Of a DNA stretch of 64,000 bases, positions 1,151 to 29,900 are shown piece by piece. Numbering within the stretch: position 1 is the stretch's first letter; each line of letters begins with the position of its first letter. The position numbers and the translations under genes are program-made. The notes under the pieces are model-generated. The model had not been told where the DNA came from. It searched no databases and worked only from the letters and a program-made list of their open reading frames with translations. This DNA comes from an uncultured Anaerolineales bacterium. GTDB lineage: Bacteria > Chloroflexota > Anaerolineae > CG2-30-64-16. The stretch spans positions 22,208 to 86,207 of the forward strand of contig CAZELR010000007.1 in assembly GCA_964513075.1 (NCBI GenBank). The letters run 5' to 3'.

Positions 1151-1385
1151 AAGTGTGCGCCTAACCGCGCTTGGCCTCCGGAGGCTGTCTGCGCTGCATA
1201 CAGGTGCCTCGGTTGTTGTGACTCTCAACAGGTATGATCCGGTCATCAGAGCGCCGGCTGGCACGTCGTATGCGGTTGAGGTCGTGCATCAGGCTGCCAA
1301 GTGCGTCTGGATTCGAGGCTTTAGCCGGTCTGGCATGCGGCCCCAATGGCGGACAACCCGGCTGAAGCCTCCATTCCAGTACGCC

Positions 1386-2510: not shown

Positions 2511-2518
2511 GGCTGGAG

Positions 2519-9333: not shown

Positions 9334-9369
9334 CCTTTATCATGGACCCGATCGGGTCCATGATAAAGG
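9334..9369. promoter_or_regulatory. 36-bp perfect palindrome (possible operator and/or terminator)
   Basis: CCTTTATCATGGACCC-GATC-GGGTCCATGATAAAGG equals its own reverse complement; sits 14 nt downstream of the 9383 stop and ~220 nt upstream of the pfk start. Confidence 0.4.
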
Positions 9370-10799: not shown

Positions 10800-11759
10800 T
10801 TAATCGTGCATTTGGACTGGGATCGCCGCAGCGCCCGCGGCTGGCGGGAAGTGCAGCATGATCCCGACGTCGGCCCGATCCAGGGTCGGCAAGAACGCGT
10901 CCACTAGCGGCTTGAAAGCGCCCTCCGGTTGAAGCTGGCCGTAAACCTCGACCATGTTGGCCAGCAATTGGCTGTCCCAGGCCAGTGTGGGCAGCGGCTC
11001 ACCATTGGCATACAGATGCAGGCCGTCCGGCTTGTTCCGTATTTCCAGGTGTTGGATGTTGCCGGCCTGTAGCTGGGCTACTGTTGCGGGGGCCAGGCCG
11101 CCGATGCCGGCGCCGGTGAGGTTGGCCAGGTCCTGGGTGGTGACTCCCAGGATGCCGGGTTGACCGGCCTGATCAAACGTGACTTCGAATTTAGTGATCA
11201 GGGAAGCCGGGTCGGTGATGGGTGAGATCGTCAGTGCTTTGGCCGTGCCGGGTTTGCTGAGAGGAATCTCGGCCGCGTCGCCGCGTGGGAAGCGGAGCAC
11301 GACGTTCAGGCCCAGGCGCGTCACCCACGGCACTAGCTTGGCAATGGTGTCGGTGTTTTGGACGTTGAAAGCAGCCGCCAGGTCCAATGCACGCTGCATG
11401 CTGCCCTGGCTGAAGCCGAGCTGGGGCATCGGCTTGCCGTTCACCAGAATCACCAGGCGGTCACCCACTGCGGCGAGTTCGATGTGTTGGATGCCGGCCT
11501 TTGTCATGGTGTTGACCAGGTCCGGCGGCACTGCAAAGCTGGACACATCGACGCCCACTGCCTTCAGGAAGAGCGGGTTGATGCCTATGATACTGGGCAC
11601 GCCGCTCTCGTCCACGTCGACAACCAGGCGCGGCAGCGCAATTTGAAAAACCTCACCCGAGGGGGTTGCCGCGGCGCCGGAAGGTTGTGTCGGTTCGCCA
11701 CTGCACGCGGTCAGAAAAGCCAGCAGGACGACCAACGTGAGCCAAAAGGTTCGCTTCAT
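10800..11759 (-). CDS. Lipoprotein, paralog B, internally duplicated domain (unknown function)
   Basis: Start at ATG 11759 (MKRTFWLTLVVLLAFLTACSG; GGAGG SD with a 7-nt spacer); same two-repeat architecture (GIQHIELAAVGDRLVILVNGKPMPQLGF / NIQHLEIRNKPDGLHLYANGEPLPTLAWD). Confidence 0.65.
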   Translation of the reverse strand: MKRTFWLTLVVLLAFLTACSGEPTQPSGAAATPSGEVFQIALPRLVVDVDESGVPSIIGINPLFLKAVGVDVSSFAVPPDLVNTMTKAGIQHIELAAVGDRLVILVNGKPMPQLGFSQGSMQRALDLAAAFNVQNTDTIAKLVPWVTRLGLNVVLRFPRGDAAEIPLSKPGTAKALTISPITDPASLITKFEVTFDQAGQPGILGVTTQDLANLTGAGIGGLAPATVAQLQAGNIQHLEIRNKPDGLHLYANGEPLPTLAWDSQLLANMVEVYGQLQPEGAFKPLVDAFLPTLDRADVGIMLHFPPAAGAAAIPVQMHD

Positions 11760-11884
11760 TGAGCACCTCCGCACAGAGACGTATTGCCCGATGCTGACAG
11801 GGCCGTAGACTGCTTGTATCCCTTAGGAACAACTCATTGACAAGTCTACCACAGTTCAGCACGTTTTACAAGGGGGAAAATCCC

Positions 11885-14269: not shown

Positions 14270-14763
14270 AGTGCCGCCTCCCGTCCCGCACGTGCTGCCA
14301 TCTTGATCGCGTCGATGATGCGGATGTAGCCGGTGCAGCGGCAGAGGTTGCCCACCAGCGCCTCGCGGATCTCCGTGTCGGTGGGGTTAGGGTTGCGGTC
14401 CAGCAGCGCACGGGCATTCACCAGGATCCCCGGAGTGCAGAAGCCGCACTGCGTGGCGCCGGTGGCGATGAAGGCCTCTTGCAGTGGGTCGAGCTGGCTA
14501 TCCTGTGCCAGGCCTTCGATGGTAACGATCGTTGCCCCGTCGGCTTCCGGGGCCAGCACCATGCACGAGTTAACCGGTTCGGCATGGTCCGCGCCCGGCC
14601 AACGGAGCAGGACGGCGCACGCGCCGCATTCGCCGGCTTCGCAGCCATTCTTCGTGCCGGTGAGCACCAATTGTTCGCGCAGCACCTGAAGCAAAGTGTG
14701 GTGCGACGCCACGTCGAGGGTGTACGGCTCGCCGTTGACGGTGAGGTGTATGGTGTGGTTCAT
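14266..14763 (-). CDS. (2Fe-2S)-binding small subunit of Mo-hydroxylase (CoxS-like)
   Basis: 165 aa; CxxGxCGxC ferredoxin-like plus second 2Fe-2S helical-bundle cysteine motifs (CEAGECGACAV...CGFCTPG). Confidence 0.9.
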   Translation of the reverse strand: MNHTIHLTVNGEPYTLDVASHHTLLQVLREQLVLTGTKNGCEAGECGACAVLLRWPGADHAEPVNSCMVLAPEADGATIVTIEGLAQDSQLDPLQEAFIATGATQCGFCTPGILVNARALLDRNPNPTDTEIREALVGNLCRCTGYIRIIDAIKMAARAGREAAL

Positions 14764-15725
14764 GCGGCGCCTCCGGCGGACGAAGGACGAAGCGATCCTG
14801 CGGATCGGACGGAGGACGGAGTAGCTGCCAGTACGGCCTCGATTCCACGGCGAGCCAGCACCGCCACCATTGCCCGCCGGTAATCGGCGCTGGCGCGGAT
14901 ATCGGTGATCGGTCGGGCAGCGGCGGCAGCAAGCGCCGCGGCGCGCTGCACGCCCGCCGGCGAAGCATCGGCTGCCAGAGCTGCCTCAGCCTCCGGCGCA
15001 CGCAGGGGGGTCGGGGCCACCGCACCCAGGGCGATACGGACACTTTTGATTTTTGATTTTTGATTTCTGATTGCTTGCGGCTCTTCAAATCCGAAATCGG
15101 CAATCGGCAATCCGAAATCGATCCACACCGCCACACTGACCATCGAAATATCGCCGATCTTGGTGCGGCCCAGCTTGTTGAACGCGCCGCGTGCGCCGGC
15201 CGGGGCGGGGGGCAGGTGGATGGTGGTCAGGAACTCACCAGGCTGGAGCGCAGTGCGGCCCGGCCCGGCGAAGAAGTCCGCGATGGCGATGCGGCGGACG
15301 CCGGCGGGGCCGAAGGTCTCCGCGACCGCGTCCAGGCAGTAGAGCGCCGGCGCGGTGTCGGCCGCCGGGCTGGCGTTGCAGCAGTTGCCGCCGATGGTGG
15401 CCCGGTTACGGAGCTGGTAGGAGGCGACCGAGTTGCACGCTTGCGCCAGCAGATCGTAATGCTGAGCCACCAGCGGGTCAGTGGCCACCTGGTTCATGGT
15501 GCACGCGGCGCCGATGATCAGCCAGCCGTCCGCGCTTTGGCTGATCTCACGCATGCCGGGCAGGGACTTGAGGTCAACGACCCGCTGCGGTTTCACGAAC
15601 CCGCCGCGAGCCCGGATCAGCAGATCGGTGCCGCCCGAAAGAGGCCTGGTCACGCCGTTGCCGGTTGCTAACAGCGCGCTGGCCTCGGCGTAATCCTTAG
15701 GAATGATGTAATCGAAGGGTTGCAA
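14760..15725 (-). CDS. FAD-binding medium subunit of Mo-hydroxylase (CoxM-like), carrying an unusual in-frame repeat insertion
   Basis: FAD_binding_5 pattern (LQPFDYIIPKDY...GGTDLL); likely TTG start at 15725 with a GGAGG SD 8 nt upstream (the ORF-track start at 15791 is an extension); 4-nt overlap with coxS. Confidence 0.8.
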   Translation of the reverse strand: MQPFDYIIPKDYAEASALLATGNGVTRPLSGGTDLLIRARGGFVKPQRVVDLKSLPGMREISQSADGWLIIGAACTMNQVATDPLVAQHYDLLAQACNSVASYQLRNRATIGGNCCNASPAADTAPALYCLDAVAETFGPAGVRRIAIADFFAGPGRTALQPGEFLTTIHLPPAPAGARGAFNKLGRTKIGDISMVSVAVWIDFGLPIADFGFEEPQAIRNQKSKIKSVRIALGAVAPTPLRAPEAEAALAADASPAGVQRAAALAAAAARPITDIRASADYRRAMVAVLARRGIEAVLAATPSSVRSAGSLRPSSAGGAA

Positions 15726-15812
15726 CGTTGCGACCTCCGGACAGATTGGGTTGTAGTCTCGGGCCTTGTGCCCGCTGCAGGTAGTGTCCACGCCTCCAGG
15801 TGCTAGGCTGCG

Positions 15813-16244
15813 TTACTCCAGATCAGGCTTGGGCACGACCACCGTCACGTTTGGGAGCCGTGCAAAGTGCGATCGGTCGAAAGTGTAAGCTGTCGTCAAC
15901 CCTTGCACCGCCAACCAGGCTCCATTATATGCATCGATAAAGTCCACGTTCTTTTCAACAAATCCATTGATGCCTTGCAGCACCAAGTCGCCATTCGCGA
16001 TCTCCAGGCCGGGTGTGTTGAGGATAGCGAGCACTTTTTCCTGGATAGAGGCTTTGGACAGCTTATAGAACGATTCCAGCGTCCAGACGATCTCGGCGAT
16101 GACCAGGCTGTTGGTCACCAGGGTCAGTTCCCGGTTTGCGGCGCGTTTCAGCAGCGCGTCCACGGCATCGGCTTGCACGGGCACATCGTTCGTCAGATAG
16201 CGCAAGAATAGGTTCGTATCGGCGAAAACGCGTTCAGGCCGCAC
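15813..16244 (-). CDS. vapC: PIN-domain toxin (VapC family)
   Basis: 143 aa; MRPERVFADTNLFLRYL... PIN acidic residues (D9, E, D); overlaps the upstream antitoxin gene by 11 nt. Confidence 0.8.
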   Translation of the reverse strand: MRPERVFADTNLFLRYLTNDVPVQADAVDALLKRAANRELTLVTNSLVIAEIVWTLESFYKLSKASIQEKVLAILNTPGLEIANGDLVLQGINGFVEKNVDFIDAYNGAWLAVQGLTTAYTFDRSHFARLPNVTVVVPKPDLE

Positions 16245-16485
16245 CGTTCGCCACCTTTCGGGCGTGCGCCTCGATTACCTGTCGCCGGATGACGTCGAAA
16301 TCCTGTTCTCCGCTCACCGGTACGCTGCCGCGCAAATCGGTCAGCGTCTGCTGGAGCGGCTGCAGGATGATCTCGTCGCCGCGCCGCGTGAAGATGACGC
16401 GATCGCCTTCTTGCAGCTTCAAGAATTGACGGACCGGGCGCGGCAGCGTGATTTGACCACGACGTCCTACGGTGCTAGCGATCAT
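16234..16485 (-). CDS. vapB: AbrB/MazE/SpoVT-type antitoxin (VapB family)
   Basis: 83 aa; N-terminal swapped-hairpin motif (RRGQITLPRPVRQFLKLQEGDRV); classic toxin-antitoxin gene overlap with vapC. Confidence 0.75.
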   Translation of the reverse strand: MIASTVGRRGQITLPRPVRQFLKLQEGDRVIFTRRGDEIILQPLQQTLTDLRGSVPVSGEQDFDVIRRQVIEAHARKVANGAA

Positions 16486-16498
16486 TGGATAATCCCCT

Positions 16499-16564
16499 TC
16501 TTGACTGACGTTTCATGATTTGCCAGTCAGGAAGCATTCTACACGGCAGTTACGCAAATGTCAA
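16499..16564 (-). promoter_or_regulatory. Consensus sigma70-type promoter TTGACA-N17-TAGAAT for vapBC, plus a CTGACTG-containing palindromic putative operator between the -10 and the start
   Basis: On the - strand: TTGACA (reverse complement of 16559-16564), 17-nt spacer, TAGAAT (reverse complement of 16536-16541); imperfect inverted repeat CTTGACTGACG...GCCAGTCAG at 16499-16530. Confidence 0.5.
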
Positions 16565-16628: not shown

Positions 16629-18011
16629 CTAGAACTCGATATTGCTTCGTTCCTTCACGCCGAACTTCGACGGCGGCAGCAGCACGAATACAAGGTTCAA
16701 CAGAATGCCGACGATAGCCGAGAACACGATCGCCGGAATGCCATTCGGGAACAGTACGGGGATCTGGAATGGGTAGAGACCGTCTTTCAAACCCATCGCA
16801 CCCCCGATGCCCAGCACCAGGATTGTTGCGCCGATGGCCAGGTTCTTCGGATCGAACAGGTTCACGCGCTCGCTCTGAATGAGTGCGACGCCTTGCTTGC
16901 CGATGACGCCGAACAGGTAGATCGACAGGCCCCCGATCACCGCCAGCGGGATGGTGTTGATCAAAGCGGCGAGCTTGCCGATGAAGCCTAGCAGGATGGC
17001 CATTGCGCCTGCTGCAAAGAGCACCGGCACCGAATAGTTGCGGGTGATGGCCATGAGTGAGTTGTTTTCGCCGTAGTTGGTCCCCGGGCAGCCGCCCAAC
17101 AGACCGACCACAATGTCATCTGCACCATCGGCCACCAGGTTCAGGCCGATCAGGTTTTTGATGGACGTGGGCTTGCGGCCCAGGTCCTTAGCGAGCTGGT
17201 CGATGTAGAGGCTCATCTGGTACAGGTGGGCCGTAGATTCAGGGATCGTTGCGATGGCAATCAGTGCAACGCTGACCACCACCGACCAGGCCCGCGGATC
17301 GGTGAAGGCCGGGAACGTGATGTTGGGCACCCGGAACCAGTCAGCCTGCAGGACAGACGCGAATTTGACCAATCCGAACGGGATCGCGACCAGATAACCG
17401 ACGATGGCGCCGAGCAGAATGGGGATCATGCCGAGCAGACCTCTGCCCTGCAGATAGACCGAGAAGATGACGGTGGCGATCAGTGTAATAAAGGCCACCG
17501 GCCAGTTCGACGAGGCTTCGCCCAGGGCAGTGCCTGCAAGTGCGATACCGATGACGATAGCGACACTGCCTGTTACGATGGGCGGTAGGATACGATCGAG
17601 GGCCGCCTTGCCGACCCGCTGAATCAACAGGCCAAACAGGATTTCGACGACTGCGGTGCCGAGAATGCCGACCTGGGCTAATCTTACGCCATCAGGGCAG
17701 TATACGGTGGTGGGATCGCCGAAGCAGGCCGGTGCATACAGGGACATTACCGTAATGATGACGCTGATATAGCTGAAGCTGGATCCGTAGTACATCGGGA
17801 TGCGTCGGTTGGTCACCAGCAGGGCGATGATCGTGCCCAGGCCGCTGGCCAGCAGCGTCACGCCGACGTCGAACTTGGTGAGGACGGCAACCAGGACCGT
17901 TGCCGGGAACATAGTCAGCATCTGCTGAAAGCCGAGGCTCAACATAGCGCCGATGGGTGGGGTGTCGTCCGGCATGTAACCGAGGACAGCTTTCTTGGTT
18001 TCGACGGCCAT
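16629..18011 (-). CDS. Nucleobase:cation symporter-2 (NCS2) family permease (xanthine/uracil permease type)
   Basis: 460 aa, ~13 TM segments, NCS2 signature regions; GGAAGGAG SD upstream of the ATG at 18011. Confidence 0.85.
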   Translation of the reverse strand: MAVETKKAVLGYMPDDTPPIGAMLSLGFQQMLTMFPATVLVAVLTKFDVGVTLLASGLGTIIALLVTNRRIPMYYGSSFSYISVIITVMSLYAPACFGDPTTVYCPDGVRLAQVGILGTAVVEILFGLLIQRVGKAALDRILPPIVTGSVAIVIGIALAGTALGEASSNWPVAFITLIATVIFSVYLQGRGLLGMIPILLGAIVGYLVAIPFGLVKFASVLQADWFRVPNITFPAFTDPRAWSVVVSVALIAIATIPESTAHLYQMSLYIDQLAKDLGRKPTSIKNLIGLNLVADGADDIVVGLLGGCPGTNYGENNSLMAITRNYSVPVLFAAGAMAILLGFIGKLAALINTIPLAVIGGLSIYLFGVIGKQGVALIQSERVNLFDPKNLAIGATILVLGIGGAMGLKDGLYPFQIPVLFPNGIPAIVFSAIVGILLNLVFVLLPPSKFGVKERSNIEF

Positions 18012-18295: not shown

Positions 18296-18326
18296 GACCT
18301 TTGAGGTCTCGCAGACCTCAAAGGTC
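18296..18326. repeat. Palindromic hairpin element, copy 1 (GACCTTTGAGGTCT-CGC-AGACCTCAAAGGTC)
   Basis: 14-bp perfect stem with a 3-nt loop, 3' of the DUF1116 gene; a second copy at 19614-19644 differs by one compensatory base pair. Confidence 0.5.
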
Positions 18327-18336
18327 TTCGCCCAGT

Positions 18337-19602
18337 TCAGTATCCGTACGCTTCTGCAAATGCCACCAACGCATCCTCAAACACACTCATGGGGGCCGTC
18401 ACGATGCCCGCCCCCACCTGGCCGATGCCCGGGTCCTTGTGGGCGACGCCGGTGTTGACGCGGGGCGAGATGCCCTTTTCCACCACCTTGCGGATGTCGA
18501 TCCCCGTCGGGGTGCCGCGAAAGTCCAGGGGCGGCATGGTGAAGAACTTGTGCTCGGCGTACGTGATCTCGTACATATCCAGCGTGGTGTTGATCGCGTC
18601 GCGCGCTGAGCCGCCGACGAACGATACGATGGCCGGCGCGGATGCCATCGCGAACCCGCCGATGCCCGCCGTCTCGGTGATGGTGCTGTCGCCGATATCG
18701 GGGTTGGCGTCAGCCTCGGTGAATCCTGAGAAGTACAACGCCTTCACCTTGCCGGCCGGGGCCGTGAACCAGCGGTCGCCCAGGCCGCTGACGCGGATGC
18801 CGAAGTCCGTGCCGTTGCGGGCCATGGTGGTGACGATGGTGCTGCCCGGAATCCCGTGACCAGCCAGCGTCATGAGCTTGCACGCGGCCATGCCCGGGTT
18901 CAACACGGCCAATGGGTTGTCGCCGAGCAGCCGCAGGATATCGGAGGCGATGTCGGCGGAGGGGGCCACCTTGACCACGGACGCGTCTAAGCTCTTGAGG
19001 AAGAGCAGCGTGCCGGCCTGCATCCGGTTGTGGCCGTCATCGCCCATGTGGAGCGACTGCGCCAACAGCGAGCGCAGGTCGATGCCGCCGCTGGTGCCGC
19101 CGGCCAGGCGGACCGCTGCATCCAGCACGGGCGCCATCACCTCGTTCAGCCAGCGCAGGCGGTCCAGCACGTCCTCGCTATATGCGCCCATGCGCAGCAC
19201 CTTGCCGCGGCCTTCGTTGATGCTCGAGAAGGCACGCGGACCGCCCGGTCCGCCGGCCTGGTCCTCGACGATGTAGACCATCATCGAGGGCGAGATCAGG
19301 CCTGCCATCGGGCCGGCAGCCGAGTAATGGTGGCAGGGCGCGAAGTCGATTGCCCCCGCTGTGATCAGCGCCTCCGCGTCGTCCCAGCCCCTGGCCTTGC
19401 CTTCGAAGATCAGTGCGCCCACGGCCGCGCCTTTCATCGGGCCGGCCATGCGCTCCCAGGTGATCGGTGGGCCCGCGTGCAGCAGCAGATTGTCGCGCAT
19501 CCCAGGAATCACATCCCGCGCTCGTCCCAGCCCGATCAGCACCGGCCTGGATGCCATCATACGTTCAACGGTTGTGCGATTGGCTTGCTCGATGTCTATC
19601 AT
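18337..19602 (-). CDS. DUF1116-family protein (YlbE/AllG-like; partner of FdrA)
   Basis: Start at ATG 19602 (MIDIEQANR; AAGGAG SD); the ORF-track extension to 19653 reads through the hairpin element; conserved DUF1116 length (~420 aa) and FdrA adjacency. Confidence 0.75.
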   Translation of the reverse strand: MIDIEQANRTTVERMMASRPVLIGLGRARDVIPGMRDNLLLHAGPPITWERMAGPMKGAAVGALIFEGKARGWDDAEALITAGAIDFAPCHHYSAAGPMAGLISPSMMVYIVEDQAGGPGGPRAFSSINEGRGKVLRMGAYSEDVLDRLRWLNEVMAPVLDAAVRLAGGTSGGIDLRSLLAQSLHMGDDGHNRMQAGTLLFLKSLDASVVKVAPSADIASDILRLLGDNPLAVLNPGMAACKLMTLAGHGIPGSTIVTTMARNGTDFGIRVSGLGDRWFTAPAGKVKALYFSGFTEADANPDIGDSTITETAGIGGFAMASAPAIVSFVGGSARDAINTTLDMYEITYAEHKFFTMPPLDFRGTPTGIDIRKVVEKGISPRVNTGVAHKDPGIGQVGAGIVTAPMSVFEDALVAFAEAYGY

Positions 19603-19613
19603 GGCCTCTCCTT

Positions 19614-19644
19614 CAGACCTTCGAGGTCTCGCAGACCTCGAAGG
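19614..19644. repeat. Palindromic hairpin element, copy 2 (GACCTTCGAGGTCT-CGC-AGACCTCGAAGGTC), intercistronic between fdrA and the DUF1116 gene
   Basis: Same 31-nt element as 18296-18326 with a T/A to C/G compensatory change that preserves the stem. Confidence 0.5.
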
Positions 19645-19652
19645 TCTCCACA

Positions 19653-21446
19653 TCAGGATGACAGGCGACTGGCCCCTTTCATTCGTGCGAGGATCGCGGC
19701 CAGCTTCTCGTTTCCCCCGGCGGGCGGCCGCCAGTCCACCTGGATGGCCTGGCTGCCCTGGGCGATCAGGTTCTCGGCGAACGACTCCAGGCCGACGTTG
19801 ATGGCGGAGAGCGGCTTTTGCAGGGTCGCGAGGTCCACCGGTGCGGCAGATCGGGACAAAGCAGATTGGGATTCTGGATTGAGGCTGCGCACCAACTGGC
19901 CGGCGTAGCGGATCGTTGCCTCATTATTCGTATCAACCCACGCGCCCGCGTTTCTGAGCTGCTCGATCTGGCTGGCCAAGCCTTGCGGATCTTCGTCTGT
20001 GCCCGTGACGACAGCGACGATTTCCAGGTAACGACCGCTCGCCTGGGCTGCGGCTCTGGCCCTGGCGATGGCAGGGGCCAGCTCGCTGGCGGGGTCGGGG
20101 TGCGATCCGTAGCCGAGAACCACGTCCAGCATGATTACGGCCGTCTCCGGATCCGCGGCTTCTTGATCCAGCCGGCGGATGCGCAGCTCATTGTTCATCA
20201 TCGGATGCAGTCGTCCAACGGTGAACTCGTCCTCGCCCAGGTCGATGATGGTATGCTCCTGGCTCGTCAACGCGTTGGGAATCCGGTTTGCCTTATTGAG
20301 AGGCGCGTTGGCCCACACGCGGGGCAGGTAGTCCTGGAGCAGGTATTGCGCTTCGTAGGCCAGCGTGCCGCCTGAAAACAGACCGCGCAGATAACGTTGT
20401 CCAGGCGCAAACCTCCCCCCCTCCTCGATTCCCCCCCCTCTCCGGACGGCAGAACTGTCGCCGTCGGGAGAGGGGGGCAGGGGGGTGAGGTCAACCGCCA
20501 AGCGCGCCGCATCGTCCAGCCCCGTTGCGAAGTAGAGATTGTCGATTTGCCGGGCCGACGCGGCACGACCGATGAAATTCACGACCACCGGCTTCTGCGC
20601 CTGGCGGGCCAGCGCCAACATCTCCTCGGCGACCCTGGGCGCGGGCGGCTTGGACACCAGGACGATGACCCGTGTCTCGGGGTCGCGTGCCAGCACATCG
20701 ATGGCCTGCCGGAAAGTGACCGCGCCGACCTGCTCCGTGAGATCGCGACCGCCCGTGCCGATGCCGTGGGTGAGGCCTCCGCCCAACTGGTGGATGCGCG
20801 CAGTAACGTGCTGCAAGCCTGTGCCGGCCGCGGCCACGACGCCGATCGGTCCGCGGCGCACCCCGTTGGCGAAGCCGAGGCCGATCCCATTGATGATGGC
20901 GGTCCCGCAGTCCGGACCCATCACCAGCAGACCGCGCGCCGACGACATCTCCTTGAGCGCTATCTCGTCTTCGATCGACACGTTGTCGCTGAACAGGAAG
21001 ACGTGCTTGCCCAGCTCCAGCGCCGCGCGCGCGACCCCGGCAGCATAGCGGCCTGCAACCGAGACCAGCACCCAAGAGGCGTCAGGAAGCAGCGCGGCCG
21101 CGGTCTCCAGGCTTTGCGGCCGGTAGTCTTGCTGAAGGGTCGAAGCGCGCCGGGTGAGCAGCCCATCGACCTGCGCCAGCGCGGCGCGGGCTGACGCCTT
21201 GTCGAGTGCCTTGACGGTGATGATCAGGTCGTCGGACCTGATATCGCGCACTTCCGGCGGCAGCAGGCCGCTCTGGGCCAGCAGCTCAAGATTGGCAGGC
21301 GTGCCCATCATCACCCCGGCGTCGACGACATTGGGGAGTGCAGCGAGGGAAGCGCGCAATTGCATCAGGACGATAGAGTCGTAGTAGGCGCTGCGCCTTA
21401 GCTCGGCTTGAGTAACTGTCATGGGCATTTCATGCTTGGGCATCAT
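19653..21446 (-). CDS. fdrA: FdrA-family protein (succinyl-CoA-synthetase-alpha-like CoA-binding/ligase fold; AllF-like)
   Basis: 597 aa; CoA-binding Rossmann plus ligase-CoA domains (GIGTGGRDL...; VSKPPAP...); GGAG SD 9 nt upstream of the ATG pair. Confidence 0.8.
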   Translation of the reverse strand: MMPKHEMPMTVTQAELRRSAYYDSIVLMQLRASLAALPNVVDAGVMMGTPANLELLAQSGLLPPEVRDIRSDDLIITVKALDKASARAALAQVDGLLTRRASTLQQDYRPQSLETAAALLPDASWVLVSVAGRYAAGVARAALELGKHVFLFSDNVSIEDEIALKEMSSARGLLVMGPDCGTAIINGIGLGFANGVRRGPIGVVAAAGTGLQHVTARIHQLGGGLTHGIGTGGRDLTEQVGAVTFRQAIDVLARDPETRVIVLVSKPPAPRVAEEMLALARQAQKPVVVNFIGRAASARQIDNLYFATGLDDAARLAVDLTPLPPSPDGDSSAVRRGGGIEEGGRFAPGQRYLRGLFSGGTLAYEAQYLLQDYLPRVWANAPLNKANRIPNALTSQEHTIIDLGEDEFTVGRLHPMMNNELRIRRLDQEAADPETAVIMLDVVLGYGSHPDPASELAPAIARARAAAQASGRYLEIVAVVTGTDEDPQGLASQIEQLRNAGAWVDTNNEATIRYAGQLVRSLNPESQSALSRSAAPVDLATLQKPLSAINVGLESFAENLIAQGSQAIQVDWRPPAGGNEKLAAILARMKGASRLSS

Positions 21447-21470
21447 GATGCGTGGCTCCGATTCGGGTGC

Positions 21471-22661
21471 TCAGATCACTCCCTGGGCCTTGAGCTGTTG
21501 GACTTGTTCCTGGGTATAGCCCAGGTCTGCCAGGATCTCTCCGGTGTGCTGCCCCAATGTTGGCGACGGCAGGCGGTAGCTGACGGGCGTGGCGCTCAGA
21601 TGCACCGGGTTGCCCACCGAGCGCACCAGGCCGGCGGTGGGGTGCAACTGCTCCACAATCATCTCGCGGGCGATGATCTGGGGATCATTGAGTGCTTCGT
21701 CCACTTCGTTGATCGGCCCGCAGGGGATATCGGCCGCGCGCAATCTCTCCAGCCAGAACGCCGCATCCTGGGTCGCAAAGACCTGCTCCAGCAGTGGAAT
21801 CAGCGCGCTGCGATTGCGGATGCGGTCCGGGTTGGTGGCGAAGCGCGGATCAGCACCCACAGTCTCGACGATATTGAGCGCCTGGCAGAACCGCGTCCAG
21901 AGCCGCTCCGTGCCTACCGCGACGGTCAGGTGCTTATCGCGCGCGCGAAACGGTTGGTAAGGCACAATGGTTGCGTGGGCGTTTCCGATCTTCTGCGGAC
22001 GTTCGCCGGTGGCGAAGTACGCGCCGGCCATGTGCGTCATCCAGGCGAGCTGGCTATCGAGCAGCGCCATGTCCAATACCTGGCCCTGTCCCGTCCGGTC
22101 GCGGGCCACGAGCGCCGACAGGATGCCGATCATGCAATACAGGCTGCAGGTGGCATCGGCGAGTGGGATCGGAAAGCGGATCGGCCCCATGCCCGGCTCG
22201 CCGGTCTGCGCCATGAGCCCGGCGCGTGCCTGCGCCACTACATCATAGCCGCCCTGGCCCGCCTCCGGCCCGGTCATGCCGAAGCCGCTGATGAGGCAAC
22301 AGATCAAGCGCGGGTTGATCCCACGCAGGGTGTCCGGGTCCGCGCGCAGCCTGCGCAACGACTCCAGGCTGGGCTGGTTGACCATGAAGACGTCGGCCTC
22401 GGCGATCAGCCGATGCAGGATGGCTTGCCCCTCCGGCTCTTTCAGATTGAGCGTGATCCCGCGCTTGTTGCGGTTGACGCTCATGAAGTAGGCGCTTTCC
22501 TTTTTGACATAAGGAGGCGCCCAGCCGCGGGTCATGTCGCCCGCGCCGGGACGCTCGATCTTGATGACATCGGCCCCTAAATCGCCCAGCATCATGGCGC
22601 AAAACGGCCCAGCCAGCGCCTCAGTCATTTCGATGACACGAATTCCGTCGAGTGGCTCCAT
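21471..22661 (-). CDS. Family III CoA-transferase (CaiB/BaiF/formyl-CoA transferase type)
   Basis: 396 aa; MEPLDGIRVIEMTEALAGPFCAMMLGDLGADVIKIERPGAGDMTRGW is the canonical family-III N-terminus. Confidence 0.85.
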   Translation of the reverse strand: MEPLDGIRVIEMTEALAGPFCAMMLGDLGADVIKIERPGAGDMTRGWAPPYVKKESAYFMSVNRNKRGITLNLKEPEGQAILHRLIAEADVFMVNQPSLESLRRLRADPDTLRGINPRLICCLISGFGMTGPEAGQGGYDVVAQARAGLMAQTGEPGMGPIRFPIPLADATCSLYCMIGILSALVARDRTGQGQVLDMALLDSQLAWMTHMAGAYFATGERPQKIGNAHATIVPYQPFRARDKHLTVAVGTERLWTRFCQALNIVETVGADPRFATNPDRIRNRSALIPLLEQVFATQDAAFWLERLRAADIPCGPINEVDEALNDPQIIAREMIVEQLHPTAGLVRSVGNPVHLSATPVSYRLPSPTLGQHTGEILADLGYTQEQVQQLKAQGVI

Positions 22662-22706
22662 GGAGTACCTCTTAGTCTTCAGAACTCGAGATTGCGTCCG
22701 GGACTT

Positions 22707-23924
22707 TTAACCCCGTGATCCTTGATCCCCAATCCCTGGTCTGGGCATATCGCGGCCGAATAGGGCGAAGAACACCGTTCCGGCTGCGCCGAAGGCAGCC
22801 GCCACCAGGAAGTTGGTCTGCGGCGAGATTTCCCACAGGAACGCGCCGCCGAACGCGGCGAGCGAGACGATGACATCGCGTATGAGATAGTATAGCCCGA
22901 ACATCGCCGCCTTTTTGTCCTCGGGCGCCAGGTCCATGATCAGCGCCTTGCGAGTCGGTTCACCGAACTCCTTGAGCCCGCGCACGATGAACGCAACGAC
23001 GAGCATCCAGAAAGAGTGCGAAAACAGCAAGACCACAGGAAAGAGGGTGAAGTTCAGAAACGTGATCGCCACATAAGGCTTCTTGCCGTTCCGGTCGGCC
23101 AGGTAGGCGACTGGAATGTAGACCAGCATTGCCACGATCATCTCGATGGTGGTCAGCAAGCCGAATTGCGGCGCTGAGACGCCGACCACCTTCATGGCCC
23201 AGATGACGGCGAACGCGTAGGGAATCTGCTCGCAGAAGCGCACCAAGATGTCGGAGATCAACAGGTTGCGCAGGTCGGGCGTTATGAAGCGGACCAGCCG
23301 CAAGGGGTTACTCTCTGCTTGTTTCTTCTGCTGGCCTTCTTCGATCAGTAACTGTTGGAGCACCAGAGCGATCAGCGCCAGGGCCAGTGCAACGCCGAAC
23401 GCTGCGCGCACGCCATCTCGTTCGCCGTAGGCGGCGATCAGCAGCCCACCGATCACCGGACCGAGCGCCATGGGAATCCGCCGCACCAGGGAGTGGAGCG
23501 ACACGCCCATAGTGCGCTTGTCCTTGGGCAGCGCCGCAGCAACCAGGCTCATGGTCGCGGGCAGCGAGAGAGCATCCCATGAGATGAAGAAGACAGCCCC
23601 GACAATCACCGCCTGCCAGGTGGGAAACAGGATGACGATGATGTAGCCAACCATCGCGACCACATTGAAGATGGCCAGCGCGCGTTTGTAGCCCACGCGA
23701 TCGCTCAGGTAGCCGCCAGGGAACGAGTACAGCGCGCTGAGCAGGTTATCCATCCCGTTCAACAGGCCGATGGCGTAGGAGCTGCCGCCCAGCGCGATCA
23801 AGTAGATGGGTAGGAAGCGCTCACCCAACTTCTCGCCCATCCCCACCAGGACGACCATGACCAGCAGGGTGGCGATGTTGCGGCGGAGGCCCAGGAAGTC
23901 GCTGATGCGACGTTTAAAAGTCAT
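22707..23924 (-). CDS. MFS transporter
   Basis: Probable start MTFKRR at 23924, forming an ATGA stop/start overlap with the upstream CN-hydrolase gene; 12 TM helices; the ORF-track 5' extension (Arg-rich) is rejected. Confidence 0.75.
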   Translation of the reverse strand: MTFKRRISDFLGLRRNIATLLVMVVLVGMGEKLGERFLPIYLIALGGSSYAIGLLNGMDNLLSALYSFPGGYLSDRVGYKRALAIFNVVAMVGYIIVILFPTWQAVIVGAVFFISWDALSLPATMSLVAAALPKDKRTMGVSLHSLVRRIPMALGPVIGGLLIAAYGERDGVRAAFGVALALALIALVLQQLLIEEGQQKKQAESNPLRLVRFITPDLRNLLISDILVRFCEQIPYAFAVIWAMKVVGVSAPQFGLLTTIEMIVAMLVYIPVAYLADRNGKKPYVAITFLNFTLFPVVLLFSHSFWMLVVAFIVRGLKEFGEPTRKALIMDLAPEDKKAAMFGLYYLIRDVIVSLAAFGGAFLWEISPQTNFLVAAAFGAAGTVFFALFGRDMPRPGIGDQGSRG

Positions 23925-24871
23925 AGGGTATCCGGAGGTTTCGCCGGCTCGAACCTGCCTTTTGCTGGCGTCAAGATGTTGCGATAGGCGGCCAGGTTGC
24001 GCTCCCGCAGATGCTCGAAGATCATGGGACTGGCCGCGCCGTAGGTGATGCGCTTGAGCGGATCGGGGTCGAGCTCGGCGAAGCAGACCTCCTCGGTGCC
24101 GCGCGCCTGTGCCAGTTTGTGCGCGATGGGATCGACGATCATGCTGTGGCCGAAGTAGTAGTTGCCGCCTGCGTCGGGACCCACGTAGTTGCAACCAATC
24201 AGGTAAACATGGTTGTCATACGCGCGCGCCCGGTTGGTCAGCTCCCAGATTTCGAACGAGCGGAGCAGGGCGCTGGTGCGGATGATCACTTCTGCGCCCA
24301 TGATGGCCTCCGCGCGATACAGCTCCGGGAAGTCGCCATCGAAGCAAATGGTCAGACCGATATTCGCCAGCGGCGTCTCGATCACCACGGGGTCCATCCC
24401 GGGGGTCGACCATCCGCTGACTTCTACCTCCCCTTGCCTGTGCATGGGAGAGGTGGGCGAGCTTCGCTCGCGCGGGGTGAGTGCCCTCATGCGTTCGGTG
24501 GGGAACAGGTGCGTCTTGCGGTACACCCCCAGCACATCGCCGCTTGGCCCGATCAACGCGGCCGAGTTGAATACGACGCCGCGCGTCTCCCCGCGTTCGT
24601 AGGCGCCGAAGGCCAGATGAATGCCCAGCTCCTGCGCCACTGCCTGCAGCGGCTCGGTTTGGCGCCCTGGCAGGGTGTCCACCGTATCCCAGAGATCGCC
24701 TGGTCCAACGCCGGGTGCGAAGCCGGTGGTGATCGTCTCCGGCAGCACGATGAGCTGGGCGCCCGATTCGTCAAACGCGCGGCGGGTCCAGGCGACCGAT
24801 TTGGCGACATTGGCCGCGATATCCATCGGCGTGATCGCGTACTGGGCGCAAGCGGCGGTGAAGCGTTGCAT
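23921..24871 (-). CDS. Carbon-nitrogen hydrolase (nitrilase-superfamily amidase)
   Basis: 316 aa; E-K-C catalytic-triad context (...LIVLPE..., ...RKTHLF..., ...ICFDGDFPE...). Confidence 0.8.
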   Translation of the reverse strand: MQRFTAACAQYAITPMDIAANVAKSVAWTRRAFDESGAQLIVLPETITTGFAPGVGPGDLWDTVDTLPGRQTEPLQAVAQELGIHLAFGAYERGETRGVVFNSAALIGPSGDVLGVYRKTHLFPTERMRALTPRERSSPTSPMHRQGEVEVSGWSTPGMDPVVIETPLANIGLTICFDGDFPELYRAEAIMGAEVIIRTSALLRSFEIWELTNRARAYDNHVYLIGCNYVGPDAGGNYYFGHSMIVDPIAHKLAQARGTEEVCFAELDPDPLKRITYGAASPMIFEHLRERNLAAYRNILTPAKGRFEPAKPPDTL

Positions 24872-24949
24872 CGTTGCTCCTGGGGGCCGGTTCCAGGTTG
24901 GCGGGTTGCAGGTTGCAGATCACAACCTTTGACCTGCAACCTGTAACCT

Positions 24950-25822
24950 TCAACCGCGCGACAGTGCGTTGATCCGATCGACGTGCGCCGGGTTGAACGC
25001 ATCACCGAACTTCGTCATGCCCATCGTCTCTTTGAGCTCCATCAGCTCGTCGTATTCAGCATCTTCCACGAACGCGACGCAGCGGCCGATCGAGCTTTCG
25101 CCGTCCACAAAGCGCCAGGGGAAGAATCCCACCGTGGCGCGACGGTTAAGCAGTAAGTCGATCTCGCCGCCGATGCACTCCGCGTGGATGATGTGATGCG
25201 GGAACATCTCGATGTGCATGAGCTGATACTTGGAATCGTCGAAGCACTCTTCCAGGCTTTGGCCGTACTTCTTGCGGAAGTGCGCGTCCGCCTCTTTGGC
25301 CTGGCGCGGCATCCACTGCCGGATGATGGTGTTCATAGGATGATCCGCGCTGCCGCAATCCACGCCGATCCATTTGATCTGCTTCCGTTTGGCCCATTCC
25401 GCAAACTCCCGATCGGGCCCGGGGTGCTGCACCATATAGCGGATCTCATCCGCCGTGGGCATGTCCCAGCCGAAGTGGTGATAACCGGTGTGAATGATCA
25501 GGATGTCGCCCTGGCGCACCTCGACGCGCTCCTCGATCATTTTGGCAGTGTAGACGTCGTAGTTGCCGCAGACATCCGAGAGGTCCACGATGGCTCCGGG
25601 CCCGACCAGGAAATCCATCTCCAGGCTGGCAATATCTTTGCCTGGCGTGAAGAAGTGGATCTCGCCGTCGAGATGCGTGCCCAGGTGGTTGGAGTGGGTG
25701 AGCAGCTGGCCGTTAGCCCCATTGGGAGCCAGTCGTTTGAAGTACTTTACCTGCAGCGGCTCATAGGTGGGCCACGCCGGCGTGCCGATGCCCAGAGGGA
25801 TGGTGAGGTCGATGATCTTCAT
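24950..25822 (-). CDS. Putative cyclase family protein (kynurenine-formamidase/isatin-hydrolase-like metal-dependent amidohydrolase)
   Basis: 290 aa; HxGTHxDxxxH-type motif (SNHLGTHLDGEIHF) characteristic of the cyclase/arylformamidase family. Confidence 0.75.
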   Translation of the reverse strand: MKIIDLTIPLGIGTPAWPTYEPLQVKYFKRLAPNGANGQLLTHSNHLGTHLDGEIHFFTPGKDIASLEMDFLVGPGAIVDLSDVCGNYDVYTAKMIEERVEVRQGDILIIHTGYHHFGWDMPTADEIRYMVQHPGPDREFAEWAKRKQIKWIGVDCGSADHPMNTIIRQWMPRQAKEADAHFRKKYGQSLEECFDDSKYQLMHIEMFPHHIIHAECIGGEIDLLLNRRATVGFFPWRFVDGESSIGRCVAFVEDAEYDELMELKETMGMTKFGDAFNPAHVDRINALSRG

Positions 25823-26992: not shown

Positions 26993-29900
26993 ATGATCTC
27001 TGATCCGCAGGATCGCATTCGCTCCGTCATGCTTCATGCCATTGTCTCTGTAGCAGCCATGTGCTTGATCGGTTTGTTGCCGGCTTTACTCGTGAGCGCC
27101 GGCTTTCCGGCCACGACCCCCGCACCGCTTTCGCTCCTCACGTTGCCTGATCCGATCACGATTATCGGCAGCCCGCTGCGTGTTGCCGTTGGATCGGACA
27201 GCAGTATCCAGGCCTACTACAATGGCCTTGGCCAGGTGTACGGCTGGCAGGATGGCAGCGCGGATAGTGGAGTCTGGCTGCACATCGGCAGCGATGTCTA
27301 TGGGCCGGACGCCTGTTTCAGCGGACGCTTAGCCACCAACATGGTCACCGTGCGGCCGTGGACTGCGTTAAGCCATAGCGGACCCACCGGCTCCGGCGCC
27401 GCCGCCGATCCGTGGGTCATCACGACGGTCCTGGGCGCGGGATCGAGCGGCGTACAGGTGACCCAGCGCGTCTCCTACGTCAACGGCCAGGACTACTTCC
27501 GCCTGAAATGGGATGTTGCCAACGCTTCCGGGGCGCCCATTACAGCCAACCTGTTTCATGCCGCGGACAGTTACTTTGGTAACGATGACTATGGTCGCGG
27601 CTACTATGACCCGGTCAGCGGCGCCGTGGGCGGCTATATTCCCAGCGGCCCGTGGTACATGCTGTTCGTGCCCGCGACGCCCGCCACTGCTTACAAAGAG
27701 GACTGGTACTTCAACATCTGGGCGGGTATCGGGTATTGCGGCGACACCGTCTCGTGTCCGGTCTCGGGAGCTTGCTCCCCTGGGTCGGGGTTTGACAACA
27801 CCATCGACACCAGCCCGGCTGGCGTTGACAACGGTTTCGGGCTGCAATGGCAGCGGACGATCGCGTCGGGCGCTGGCGCAACAGTCGGAGACTGGTGGAC
27901 GTTCGGCAGCATTCCCACCCTGCCCGGCGAGGAGCCGACGCCCACCCCTACAGCCACGCGCACGCCGACGGCGACCAACACCAGCACATATACCCCTACG
28001 CGGACGCCCACCGCGACGGTAACGCCTACCGCAACCGTCACCCCTGGCGGCTGCGGTGCACCGACCGAGACGGGAACGATCGTCAGAACGTTGGCCTATC
28101 ACCAGCTTACAGCCTTCGCCAGCCGGCCGGGCGTGCATACCCGGGGCAATAGCCCTTCGATCCTGAGCGTAGATGGCAGCCGGGCCGCGTTTTTGGTGGG
28201 CGGGTCACCGGCGCATGTCTGGGTAATCGATGCGGACGGCACAGGATTGCGCGAGATTAATACCCAGCCCGGTGGGGATTATACGAACGTCGATATCAGC
28301 GCTGACGGCTCGAAGGTGCTCTCCTGGGATGAAAGTGACGGCGGAGAGGTTCGCATGGTCAACGCCGACGGCAGCGACGCGCATGTCGTCTTATCGTACT
28401 CGAGTGGACGCGGTTACTTTCGCCTCTCGCCCGACGGTACGAAGGTTTATTTTGCGTTCACCTGGTATCTCAGCTACGGCGGGCAGAGCTACAACCCCGG
28501 TCTGTTTGTCATCAACGCCGACGGCACCGGCCTGCGCCAGATCTTAGATCGCGCCAGCGTCCATGCGCTCTTCGGCAAGCCGGTGCCTGAGCTGCAGTTT
28601 TACTGGCATGGCCCGCCCTTCGATGTGTCGGACGACGGCAGCCATATCGTGCTTCAGGTGCTCGTGCCGGATGTCGGTTGGCCCATCATGCGCGTGAACG
28701 GTGACGGAAGCGATTTGCAGGCGTACGCTTTGTTCCCGAATAACGCACATCCCGATGTGGGGAACCTGGGCATCAGCGGCGACGGTCGGGTGGCCTTCTA
28801 TGAAGTGATGACCGACCCGTGGGAGCTGGGCGTGTTCAACTGGGATGGCTCGGGCAAGCGCGCACTGGCCAGTGGCCTGGGCGGGCTCAACACCCAGGGC
28901 GAGGTCGTTCAGTTGACATATGATGGCACGAAGCTGTCCTATGGCTCGTTGAATCGCCTCTACAACACCGATGGCTCCGCTGTGCTGCAGTTGGCGGCCA
29001 CCGGCCCCACCTTGAGTGGCGACCCTCCCCTGATGGTCGGCAACTGGGGGATGTACCGCAGCAGCATGAACCGCGACGCCACGCGCTTCCTGTTCACCTT
29101 CGACAACAACACCTGGGTGGACGGCGCGCTCGTGCCTGAGCAGTTGGGTATTCTGGCGCTGAACCCGGCCAGCCTGGGGCAAGCGCCCACCCTTGCAGAT
29201 CCCAAGATCGCGCCGTTCTACTTGGTGCGCGGAGATGGCTCGACGACCACCTTCAGCGCCCGATCGAGTTCGGCTAACATGCATCTGCGCACCAACGCCG
29301 TCGTGTTTCGAAGCGGGCTGGAGGTGAACAGCAATATCGTCAACGATGCCGTGTTGTACGATGATGGCAGCAACGGTGACATCACCGCAGGGGATGGCCG
29401 CTTCACCAACAGCTTTGTCCGAGCCAACTCCGACGCTGTGATCGGTCCGCACACGGTGCGCATGAAGACCGAGGTGCGCGCTTCCGACGGCCGGCGCCAC
29501 GCCACCGCGCTCGATGTGGCGCAGCTCGACGTCGTCCTTGCCGTGCCGCCGGGGGTGGGTCCCTGCACGCCCACGCCGACGCCTACCGTAACCGTCACCC
29601 CTGCCGCGTGCGGCCTACCGACCGAGGCGGGAACGGTCGTGCGCACGCTGGCCTATCACCAGCTCACATCCTTTACCGCCCAGCCGGGTGTGCACCCCGG
29701 CAAGAGGGCCTCCATCCTCTCTGCAGATGGCAGCCGCGCCGCCTTTGTTGTGAAGAGTGCTCCTTCCCACGTTTACGTCGTCAATGCGGATGGCACGGGG
29801 CTGCGCGAGGTAGACACGCTCTCCGGAGACTGGGACCCAAAAGTGGACATCAGCGCCGACGGGTCAAGGGTGCTCTACTGGGACGGCGTTGTGGCGTACA

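Follow-up and report, generated by a model that had tools for sequence, protein, structure and literature searches.

The 64-kb stretch of DNA analysed here (the window; 64,000 nucleotides of contig CAZELR010000007.1 from an uncultured Anaerolineales bacterium) carries on its minus strand a block of six genes that code for a cyclase-family metal hydrolase, a CN-hydrolase, a transporter of the major facilitator superfamily (MFS), a family-III (CaiB/BaiF) CoA-transferase, FdrA, and a DUF1116 protein. A nucleobase permease of the NCS2 family and a CoxMSL-type molybdenum (Mo) hydroxylase are encoded downstream of them. We conclude with high confidence that this block represents, in its Chloroflexota (Anaerolineae-type) form, an anaerobic nucleobase-catabolic operon that is widely conserved and has an AllFG(H) carbamoyltransferase at its centre. 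For its function we propose a route in which uracil would be converted to barbiturate, ureidomalonate, carbamoyl phosphate plus malonamate, malonate, and finally malonyl-CoA, and we give this route an even chance of being correct. All of its steps were deduced from gene content. That the operon stands for a previously unrecognised, energy-conserving "phosphorolytic oxidative" pyrimidine fermentation, widespread in anaerobes (Chloroflexota, Bacillota, Caldisericota, Thermotogota, and Acidobacteriota), is a more tentative suggestion, which we hold to be possible but somewhat short of probable.

Conservation of the gene neighbourhood

The neighbourhood was examined from two anchors. The AllG-anchored scan (AllG is the current Pfam name of DUF1116), which took one genome per GTDB species, yielded at least 595 confirmed relatives; the best 80 of these loci were examined and their neighbours were classified by tblastn and de novo clustering. 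Chloroflexota, Acidobacteriota, Caldisericota, Bacillota, Thermotogota, Gemmatimonadota, Armatimonadota, and others are represented among these 80. Where both flanks reach 5 kb or more (48 loci), the most frequent neighbours are FdrA (47/48), the cyclase (44/48), CoxM (43/48), and CoxL (38/48), and further neighbours are the NCS2 permease (26/48), an amidase-signature enzyme (10/48), CaiB (8/48), and the CN-hydrolase (7/48). The cyclase-anchored scan was carried out separately on metagenome contigs and gave 25 loci with full flanks, with AllG present in 23, FdrA in 22, CoxL in 18, CaiB in 15, and NCS2 in 14. AllH (formerly DUF2877) was found full-length in 14 and in a short form in 6 of these 25 loci, a PucR-type regulator in 13, the CN-hydrolase in 10, and carbamate kinase in 4. 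Homologues of the cyclase form about 2,900 clusters at 90% identity. In Alkaliphilus metalliredigens QYMF the genes lie in one operon in the order CoxMSL-NCS2-PucR-AllH-AllF-AllG-cyclase-CN_hydrolase-CaiB, and Moorella thermoacetica also has a single operon, pyrK-pyrD-pyrE-AllH-AllF-AllG-cyclase-CoxMSL-NCS2-PucR. The window proteins are 34-66% identical to their counterparts in these two organisms, or 42-66% if the permease and CoxM are left out.

The same neighbourhood thus recurs across phyla, and the arrangement is far beyond chance. That the window genes are unrelated neighbours without a common pathway could be argued from the interruptions of the block by a hairpin, a 325-nt gap, and a VapBC pair, and from the remoteness of xdhC and mocA, all of which are described below. 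We consider this extremely unlikely, since two independent anchors gave the same families in the same order in Chloroflexota, Bacillota, Caldisericota, Thermotogota, Acidobacteriota, and others. An earlier note on this DNA, made by reading the sequence, had asked whether FdrA-DUF1116-CaiB-amidase-cyclase is a recurring unit, which is borne out from both anchors. It had also suggested an uncharacterised N-heterocycle/ureide catabolic system linked to the NCS2 permease and the Mo-hydroxylase, and the conserved synteny supports this.

The architecture comes in several variants. The first is window-like with a single cyclase. The second, of the Anaerolineae type, combines two cyclases fused in one protein with CoxG, an NmrA-like protein, and another, divergent CoxMSL that is only 28-30% identical to the window CoxL. 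Its double-cyclase protein (557 aa) follows AllG in most Anaerolineae loci (L001 11260-12933 and L002 5518-7191 are examples), and this is the commonest Anaerolineae variant. In the third, the Acidobacteriota type, there is an amidase-signature enzyme. The nearest database homologues of the window proteins are from Chloroflexota/Anaerolineae metagenome-assembled genomes. L004, the closest long relative among the matches listed, is syntenic with the window, its AllG is 87% identical, and it carries window-type and double-cyclase modules in tandem around one FdrA-AllG pair, which suggests two related substrates or two hydroxylations. The same locus has at 2-3486 one more FdrA/AllG pair, which has diverged to 47% and 43% identity with that of the window, in which AllG is apparently split and which adjoins an OAD_beta-type Na+-decarboxylase subunit. 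Among the loci compared, an MFS homologue was present only in the close Chloroflexota relatives L005 and L010, and the transporter is a lineage-specific addition. In many lineages the cluster also includes a conserved protein, some 215-245 aa long, that matches nothing in Pfam or NCBIfam (L061 6583-7308, L087 18100-18747, and about 30 other loci). It often lies directly upstream of AllH/FdrA, or, where CaiB and CN-hydrolase are lacking, is grouped as a trio with a thiolase and a DUF35/OB-fold protein; it is absent from the window.

The carbamoyltransferase core

FdrA-YlbE-YlbF of E. coli (AllFGH) has been shown experimentally to be an oxamate carbamoyltransferase, which catalyses the reaction oxalurate + Pi <-> carbamoyl phosphate + oxamate and has the carbamate kinase AllK as its partner (Kim & Kim 2024, PMC11326118). 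In the window, FdrA/AllF is encoded at 19653-21446 (minus strand). It is 38-39% identical to E. coli AllF, scores 310 bits against the E. coli FdrA structure 3dmy, and with 548 bits against a cut-off of 433 for NF004760 it is the only protein of the block above an NCBIfam family cut-off; the others are below each specific equivalog cut-off. AllG (18337-19602, minus strand, in an open reading frame (ORF) that extends to 19653; PF06545, 287 bits) is 45% identical to E. coli AllG. Its likely start at 19602 gives a protein of 421 aa, as in the database protein P0001, which is 100% identical; exact-sequence look-ups with the 438-aa ORF and with the 421-aa P0001 found no contig. The AlphaFold2 (AF2) model of AllG is poor (pLDDT 59) and its sole structural match is 3clq, a DUF1116 protein of E. 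faecalis. By analogy with the E. coli enzyme we take FdrA and AllG to be the core of an AllFG(H)-type carbamoyltransferase and not an acyl-CoA synthetase.

The earlier note had read these genes differently, namely, that an imported N-heterocycle is hydroxylated, then deformylated and deamidated, and processed in a CoA-dependent way. In the fuller form of this model considered here, the heterocycle is of the pyridine, nicotinate, or quinoline type, and its products are handled as CoA thioesters by CaiB and by FdrA/DUF1116, the latter in the role of an acyl-CoA synthetase. FdrA does have succinyl-CoA-synthetase-alpha-like domains and is named "acyl-CoA synthetase FdrA" in NCBIfam. However, CoA-dependent processing by FdrA is unlikely because AllFGH is a carbamoyltransferase (PMC11326118) and because no ATP-grasp partner was found for FdrA; the CoA step is to be assigned to CaiB, with a dicarboxylate as its substrate. 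In addition, AllH and carbamate kinase travel with the cluster, and its accessory genes are related to nucleobases and not to pyridines. With these points, and those on CoxL and the cyclase given below, we regard that model as very improbable.

The earlier note had observed that AllH (YlbF) and carbamate kinase are missing, and this was confirmed across the 64 kb: AllH was not found by a six-frame search with its hidden Markov model (HMM; E<=1) or by tblastn with E. coli AllH, and carbamate kinase was not found by tblastn. Its further view that other genes stand in for them is contradicted by the relatives, which have both in the same operon with the cyclase, the CN-hydrolase, and CaiB. AllH sits in the homologous operons, and the carbamate kinase in 5 related loci passes TIGR00746. 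Both are part of the same system and are merely not local in this Chloroflexota genome, where they could be encoded elsewhere. Two substitutes for AllH were considered and rejected. The extra residues of the longer Chloroflexota FdrA are linker-like insertions relative to 3dmy and do not hide an AllH domain, and the conserved 241-aa protein co-occurs with AllH in Caldisericota, while neither of them is in the window.

The proposed pathway

In the proposed pathway a UraA-like NCS2 permease would import uracil or thymine, and CoxLMS would oxidise C6 to give barbiturate or 5-methylbarbiturate. The cyclase-family metal hydrolase would then open the ring to ureidomalonate, and AllF/AllG would split this N-acylurea with phosphate to carbamoyl phosphate and malonamate, a step modelled on the E. 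coli conversion of oxalurate and Pi to carbamoyl phosphate and oxamate. Ureidomalonate, H2N-CO-NH-CO-CH2-COO-, is ring-opened barbiturate and equals oxalurate plus one CH2. Carbamate kinase, which is in the operon in some relatives, would convert carbamoyl phosphate to ATP, NH3, and CO2, and by analogy its presence there fits a gain of ATP from the ureido group. The nitrilase-superfamily amidase would hydrolyse malonamate to malonate and NH3, and the family-III CoA-transferase would make malonyl-CoA, with decarboxylation to acetyl-CoA to follow. The three near-universal catalytic components, namely, the Mo-hydroxylase, the cyclase, and AllFG(H), would match the first three conversions.

Evidence for a pyrimidine substrate

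The NCS2 permease (16629-18011, minus strand; PF00860, 199 bits) has as its best NCBIfam match the uracil permease, at 238 bits against a cut-off of 477, and it is 35% identical to UraA compared with 22-24% to XanQ and UacT. In an alignment it carries F73, E241, H245, G289, E290, and N291 of UraA identically; the roles of these residues are those known from the UraA structure and from XanQ mutagenesis. The exact UraA binding signature is present in 31 of 55 cluster permeases, that of the window included, and 53 of the 55 have Glu where xanthine/urate carriers have Gln. Genes that could feed uracil into the pathway are also found near the cluster. A uridine phosphorylase that passes TIGR01718 adjoins the cyclase in 4 loci, 2 loci code for the cytosine permease CodB above the NF008241 cut-off and a third for a weaker match, and a cytosine-deaminase-like amidohydrolase is within the cluster or at most 10 kb away in 10 loci. 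In L129 they are combined in the order CoxL-NCS2-AllH-CodB-deaminase-PucR-cyclase-FdrA-AllG.

In 2.4 Mb around 167 copies of the cluster (the window and 166 related loci) no homologue of AllC, AllD, AllE, GuaD, SsnA, YgeW, YgeY, or YgfK was found, nor one of oxalyl-CoA decarboxylase (Oxc). The missing AllC, AllD, AllE, urate-pathway, and Oxc homologues argue against an allantoin-derived oxalurate, against the reductive urate pathway, and against oxalate as the end product. It is because of the permease, the uracil-feeding genes, the malonate genes described below, and this negative evidence that conversion of a pyrimidine to malonate is favoured, and judging from these sequences a pyrimidine is more likely to be the substrate than a purine-derived ureide.

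The Mo-hydroxylase and its maturation genes

The hydroxylase is encoded on the minus strand by coxM for the FAD subunit (14760-15791; PF00941 and PF03450), which probably begins some 20 codons into the ORF, by coxS for the 2x[2Fe-2S] subunit (14266-14763; PF01799 and PF00111), and by coxL for the molybdopterin subunit (11885-14269; PF02738, PF20256, and PF01315). CoxL shares 47-49% identity with the CoxL proteins encoded in the Moorella and Alkaliphilus operons and is below every NCBIfam equivalog cut-off. Its top NCBIfam match is XdhA, with 560 and 526 bits against cut-offs of 780 and 916 for the two models. The "XDH-like active-site loop" of the earlier note holds in that the catalytic Glu (GVGEHP) and the equivalent of Arg880 are kept, and fails in that Ala is at the Glu802 position (GGGFGCKA) and no cut-off for a xanthine dehydrogenase (XDH) equivalog is reached; the positions Glu802, Arg880, and Glu1261 are mapped from bovine XDH. 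A bona fide XDH was rejected on the scores and on the Ala. The nearest solved structure is 4-hydroxybenzoyl-CoA reductase, which would suit the pyridine-type model, but CoxL reaches only 554 bits where the reductase model TIGR03194 demands 995, and CoxM is without the Cys-rich [4Fe-4S] insertion, so this assignment was also rejected. We propose that CoxLMS may be a uracil/thymine dehydrogenase. We know of no reference gene for this enzyme (EC 1.17.99.4).

The maturation genes which the earlier note had assigned to the hydroxylase are both present, an XdhC-type Mo-cofactor insertion chaperone (2519-3649, minus strand; PF13478 and PF02625) and a MobA/MocA-like nucleotidyltransferase for Mo-cofactor cytidylylation (5398-6024, minus strand; PF12804). 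They are not adjacent to coxL, being 6-9 kb away with genes for prolyl-tRNA synthetase, an SPFH protein, phosphofructokinase, and two lipoproteins in between. The distant xdhC probably serves coxL. A YqeB-type selenium-dependent Mo-cofactor maturation gene that is above the TIGR03309 cut-off was found in L091 (3179-4018), L103, L139, and L142, and in the lineages that carry it the hydroxylase may be selenium-dependent. Maturation of this type is known from clostridial purine hydroxylases.

Ring opening, amide hydrolysis, and the fate of malonate

The cyclase (24950-25822, minus strand; PF04199, 109 bits) has the metal motif HxGTHxDxxxH, which aligns to that of kynurenine formamidase and is invariant in 27 homologues. 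Its AF2 model (pLDDT 75) matches kynurenine formamidases and also Mn-dependent isatin (lactam) hydrolases. Kinship to kynurenine formamidase is what the deformylation step of the earlier note had drawn on, but the cyclase scores 46 bits against an arylformamidase cut-off of 223 (TIGR03035) and belongs only to the wider PF04199 family. Nothing points to deformylation, and a ring-opening hydrolase is more plausible. Going by the fold of the model, we propose that the cyclase would convert barbiturate to ureidomalonate.

The CN-hydrolase (23921-24871, minus strand; PF00795, 172 bits) has the triad Glu45/Lys119/Cys176 and is 52% identical to the in-operon homologue of A. metalliredigens. Its best solved relative is Nit2, which is an omega-amidase, and we propose malonamate amidase as its likely activity. 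Other variants of the cluster have the amidase-signature enzyme in its place, a protein which was not found in the window. The CoA-transferase (21471-22661, minus strand; PF02515, 424 bits) is nearest to SUGCT, YfdE, and Frc in NCBIfam and the PDB, each of them an enzyme with dicarboxylate substrates, and it is proposed to be a dicarboxylate CoA-transferase with malonate as its putative substrate. In some loci CaiB is replaced by an AMP-forming ligase or by MdcA. The use of non-homologous enzymes at the steps of amide hydrolysis and acid activation is what one would expect where conservation acts on the chemistry and not on the protein.

Malonate genes adjoin the cluster in three loci. In L070 and L090 the cyclase gene is followed directly by a complete Malonomonas-type malonate decarboxylase, made up of MadB/OAD_beta, MdcA, an acyl carrier protein, two carboxyltransferase subunits, and MdcG. 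L105 is an independent locus, in which FdrA-AllG is followed directly, on the same strand, by an MdcA (822 bits) that stands alone. The decarboxylase is of the Na+-pumping kind, and its position fits malonate as the end product. Neither it nor MdcA is present in the window, where CaiB is the sole candidate for acid activation.

Alternatives to the pyrimidine route

Several findings weigh against the pyrimidine route. AllH, which the E. coli enzyme requires (PMC11326118), and carbamate kinase are missing from the window, as described above. The sole characterised AllFGH uses oxalurate, and the AllG proteins of the cluster share 50-88% identity among themselves and 44-52% with E. coli AllG, so that substrate specificity is not readable from the sequence; a simple neighbour-joining tree did not cleanly separate E. 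coli AllG from them. The CN-hydrolase could be a decarbamoylase instead, since its family includes such enzymes, and CaiB homologues are 40-45% identical to the acetyl-CoA:oxalate transferase YfdE. The link to malonate comes from 3 of 167 sources, two of them independent. There are also hints of a purine, in that the regulators in relatives are of the PucR family, 2 of the 55 permeases have the Gln of the xanthine carriers, an adenine deaminase adjoins one cyclase-CoxMSL locus without FdrA/AllG (L089), and the YqeB-type genes are present in some loci. In the window, the hairpin, the 325-nt gap, and the VapBC insertion make it doubtful that the permease and hydroxylase genes are transcribed together with the others. 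Finally, a description of the cluster or pathway was not found in full-text literature searches, but the clostridial xanthinase cluster (Tong et al. 2023) lay outside the comparison and overlap with it is possible.

Some of these findings would be accommodated by a route through oxalurate, in which a purine-derived or other heterocycle is converted to oxalurate, AllF/AllG are a true oxamate carbamoyltransferase, the CN-hydrolase hydrolyses oxamate to oxalate, and CaiB makes oxalyl-CoA in the way of YfdE and Frc. The known substrate of AllFGH, the kinship of CaiB to YfdE and Frc, the PucR-family regulators, and the adenine deaminase all agree with it. On the other hand, allantoinase, allantoate amidohydrolase, ureidoglycine aminohydrolase, and ureidoglycolate dehydrogenase were not found in the 167 sources, apart from a single weak allantoinase/hydantoinase-like match in L113, and the flanks did not contain an oxalyl-CoA decarboxylase. 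A hydroxylase and a hydrolase leading from a nucleobase to oxalurate have no known precedent, the permeases are of the uracil type, and the genes next to the cluster are those of malonate decarboxylase and not of oxalate metabolism. We therefore judge the oxalurate route to be unlikely.

A second possibility is a purine route resembling that of xanthinase. Here the Mo enzyme would interconvert hypoxanthine, xanthine, and urate, the cyclase would open xanthine to 4-ureido-5-imidazolecarboxylate, and AllF/AllG would release the ureido group as carbamoyl phosphate. Membership of the hydroxylase in the XDH family with XdhA as its top match, the PucR regulators, the adenine deaminase in L089, and the YqeB-type genes would all be explained, and phosphorolytic cleavage of a ureide is known in purine fermentation from YgeW/YqeA (PMC12507026). 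This route, however, leaves the amidase, the dicarboxylate CoA-transferase, and malonate decarboxylase without a role, and the recurrent neighbours offer no candidates for its later steps. Moreover, the substrate would be an aryl-urea, unlike the acyl-urea oxalurate, 53 of the 55 permeases are without the Gln of xanthine/urate carriers, and CoxL is under the XDH cut-offs and lacks the Glu802 equivalent. It is accordingly considered quite improbable.

Relation to known systems

The E. coli allFGH-allK system resembles the pyrimidine route proposed here in its homologous AllF and AllG, in the AllH and carbamate kinase held by the operons of relatives, and in the proposed phosphorolysis of an N-acylurea to carbamoyl phosphate and an amide. 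It differs in that the window is without AllH and AllK and in its context, which here consists of a Mo-hydroxylase, a cyclase, a uracil-type permease, an amidase, and a CoA-transferase and not of allantoin genes; no AllC, AllD, or AllE homologue is present in the window or in the 166 related loci. By analogy, the likely substrate here would be ureidomalonate and not oxalurate, and the amide product is proposed to be processed further and not excreted.

The oxidative pyrimidine pathway of Rhodococcus, Mycobacterium, and Corynebacterium consists of uracil/thymine dehydrogenase (EC 1.17.99.4), barbiturase (EC 3.5.2.1), and ureidomalonase (EC 3.5.1.95). The Rhodococcus dehydrogenase is a molybdo-iron-sulfur flavoprotein, and the hydrolytic ureidomalonase is of the amidase-signature type. 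To our knowledge only aerobic actinobacteria are known to use this route, and no gene has been assigned to the enzyme of its first step. The proposed intermediates uracil, barbiturate, ureidomalonate, and malonate are shared with it, and so is a hydroxylase as the first step, of the molybdo-flavoprotein type in our proposal. In contrast, a cyclase-family hydrolase would take the place of barbiturase here; no match to the AtzD/barbiturase family was found with Pfam among the 35 window ORFs or among the recurrent neighbour families. Cleavage of ureidomalonate with phosphate, which would yield ATP, is proposed instead of hydrolysis to urea, the amidase and CoA-transferase steps are added, and the carriers of the cluster are strict or facultative anaerobes.

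Uric acid is degraded reductively in E. coli and C. difficile, with YgeW as carbamoyltransferase and YqeA as carbamate kinase (Li et al. 2025, PMC12507026). This is likewise an anaerobic nucleobase route in which an enzyme of the XDH family takes the first step and energy is conserved when a ureide is split phosphorolytically to carbamoyl phosphate. Its substrate is a purine and its chemistry reductive, and it uses unrelated families, namely, YgeW (an OTCase-fold enzyme), YgfK, SsnA, and HyuA; no homologue of these four was found near the cluster. KynB and the Mn-dependent isatin hydrolase (PF04199) have the same fold and the same HxGTHxDxxxH metal site as the cyclase, and isatin hydrolase is a precedent for the opening of a lactam ring. 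The cyclase of the cluster is only about 16-23% identical to them, is about 50-80 residues longer, and is linked to AllG and the Mo-hydroxylase.

Four pyrimidine catabolic routes have been described, namely, the reductive, oxidative, Rut, and URC routes (2025 overview, PMC12507026). What is already known are the oxidative pyrimidine intermediates and the AllFGH enzyme class, and what is new are the enzyme set, the energy-conserving phosphorolytic step, and the spread among anaerobes. If the proposal is correct, anaerobes would have their own version of the oxidative route, built from unrelated enzymes, in which ATP would be gained from the ureido group via carbamoyl phosphate and more energy from the decarboxylation of malonate. 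It would assign a gene to the orphan uracil/thymine dehydrogenase and reveal a cyclase-family barbiturate hydrolase unrelated to barbiturase. The AllFGH class would gain ureidomalonate as a second substrate and reach beyond allantoin metabolism, and in Chloroflexota the carbamoyltransferase may work without AllH. Common metagenome annotations such as "cyclase family", "xanthine dehydrogenase family", "FdrA", and "DUF1116" would acquire a function, and nucleobase fermentation would join the ecology of Anaerolineae and acetogens. The cultured carriers Moorella thermoacetica and Alkaliphilus metalliredigens make the model directly testable.

Organization of the window

All six genes of the block exist as the earlier note had placed them, on the minus strand. 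In the direction of transcription the order is cyclase, CN-hydrolase, MFS transporter, CaiB, FdrA, AllG, NCS2, VapBC, CoxM, CoxS, and CoxL (11.9-25.8 kb). The window has 35 ORFs that were scanned against Pfam, and its remaining genes are for sugar metabolism and housekeeping. The start codon of the MFS gene (22707-23924, minus strand; MFS_1, 135 bits) overlaps the stop codon of the CN-hydrolase gene as ATGA, and from this overlap the two appear to be translationally coupled.

The permease and the hydroxylase, which the earlier note had placed immediately next to the block, are in fact set apart from it. The gap of 325 nt between allG and the permease gene contains a strong hairpin, and a VapB/VapC (PIN) toxin-antitoxin pair (15813-16485, minus strand) sits between the permease gene and coxM. 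A sigma-70-like promoter match (11/12) lies ahead of VapBC at 16536-16564. VapB is an AbrB/SpoVT-type antitoxin of 83 aa, and there is no such insertion in the relatives. The hairpin is one of two 31-nt palindromic copies on the minus strand that flank allG on both sides, copy 1 in the fdrA-allG spacer (19616-19646) and copy 2 directly past the allG stop (18296-18326). Each has a perfect 14-bp stem with a GCG loop, and they differ by a single compensatory change from C-G to T-A. Copy 2 has a folding energy of -24.2 kcal/mol (z = -4.5). A pattern search found these 2 copies in the window, against 0 expected, with no third site, and the 17-nt core was not found in 169 fetched loci. It is possible that copy 2 is an operon end or an mRNA-stability element. 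A scan of the window for promoters and terminators gave no enrichment over shuffled sequences and cannot define transcription units, and an Rfam scan of the window found no riboswitch or other RNA. The window version of the operon is probably split into several transcription units.

Directly downstream of coxL are two tandem lipoprotein genes (9753-10736 and 10800-11774, minus strand). By eye their products are paralogue-like, each is apparently duplicated internally, and neither has a Pfam or NCBIfam match. A perfect palindrome of 18+18 nt is present at 9334-9369, where a spacer separates the phosphofructokinase gene from those for the lipoproteins. On the plus strand an ORF of 2045 aa (26993-33130), with an N-terminal hydrophobic anchor, a composition rich in Gly, Thr, Ala, and Val, and no Pfam or PDB sequence match, probably codes for a large surface protein.

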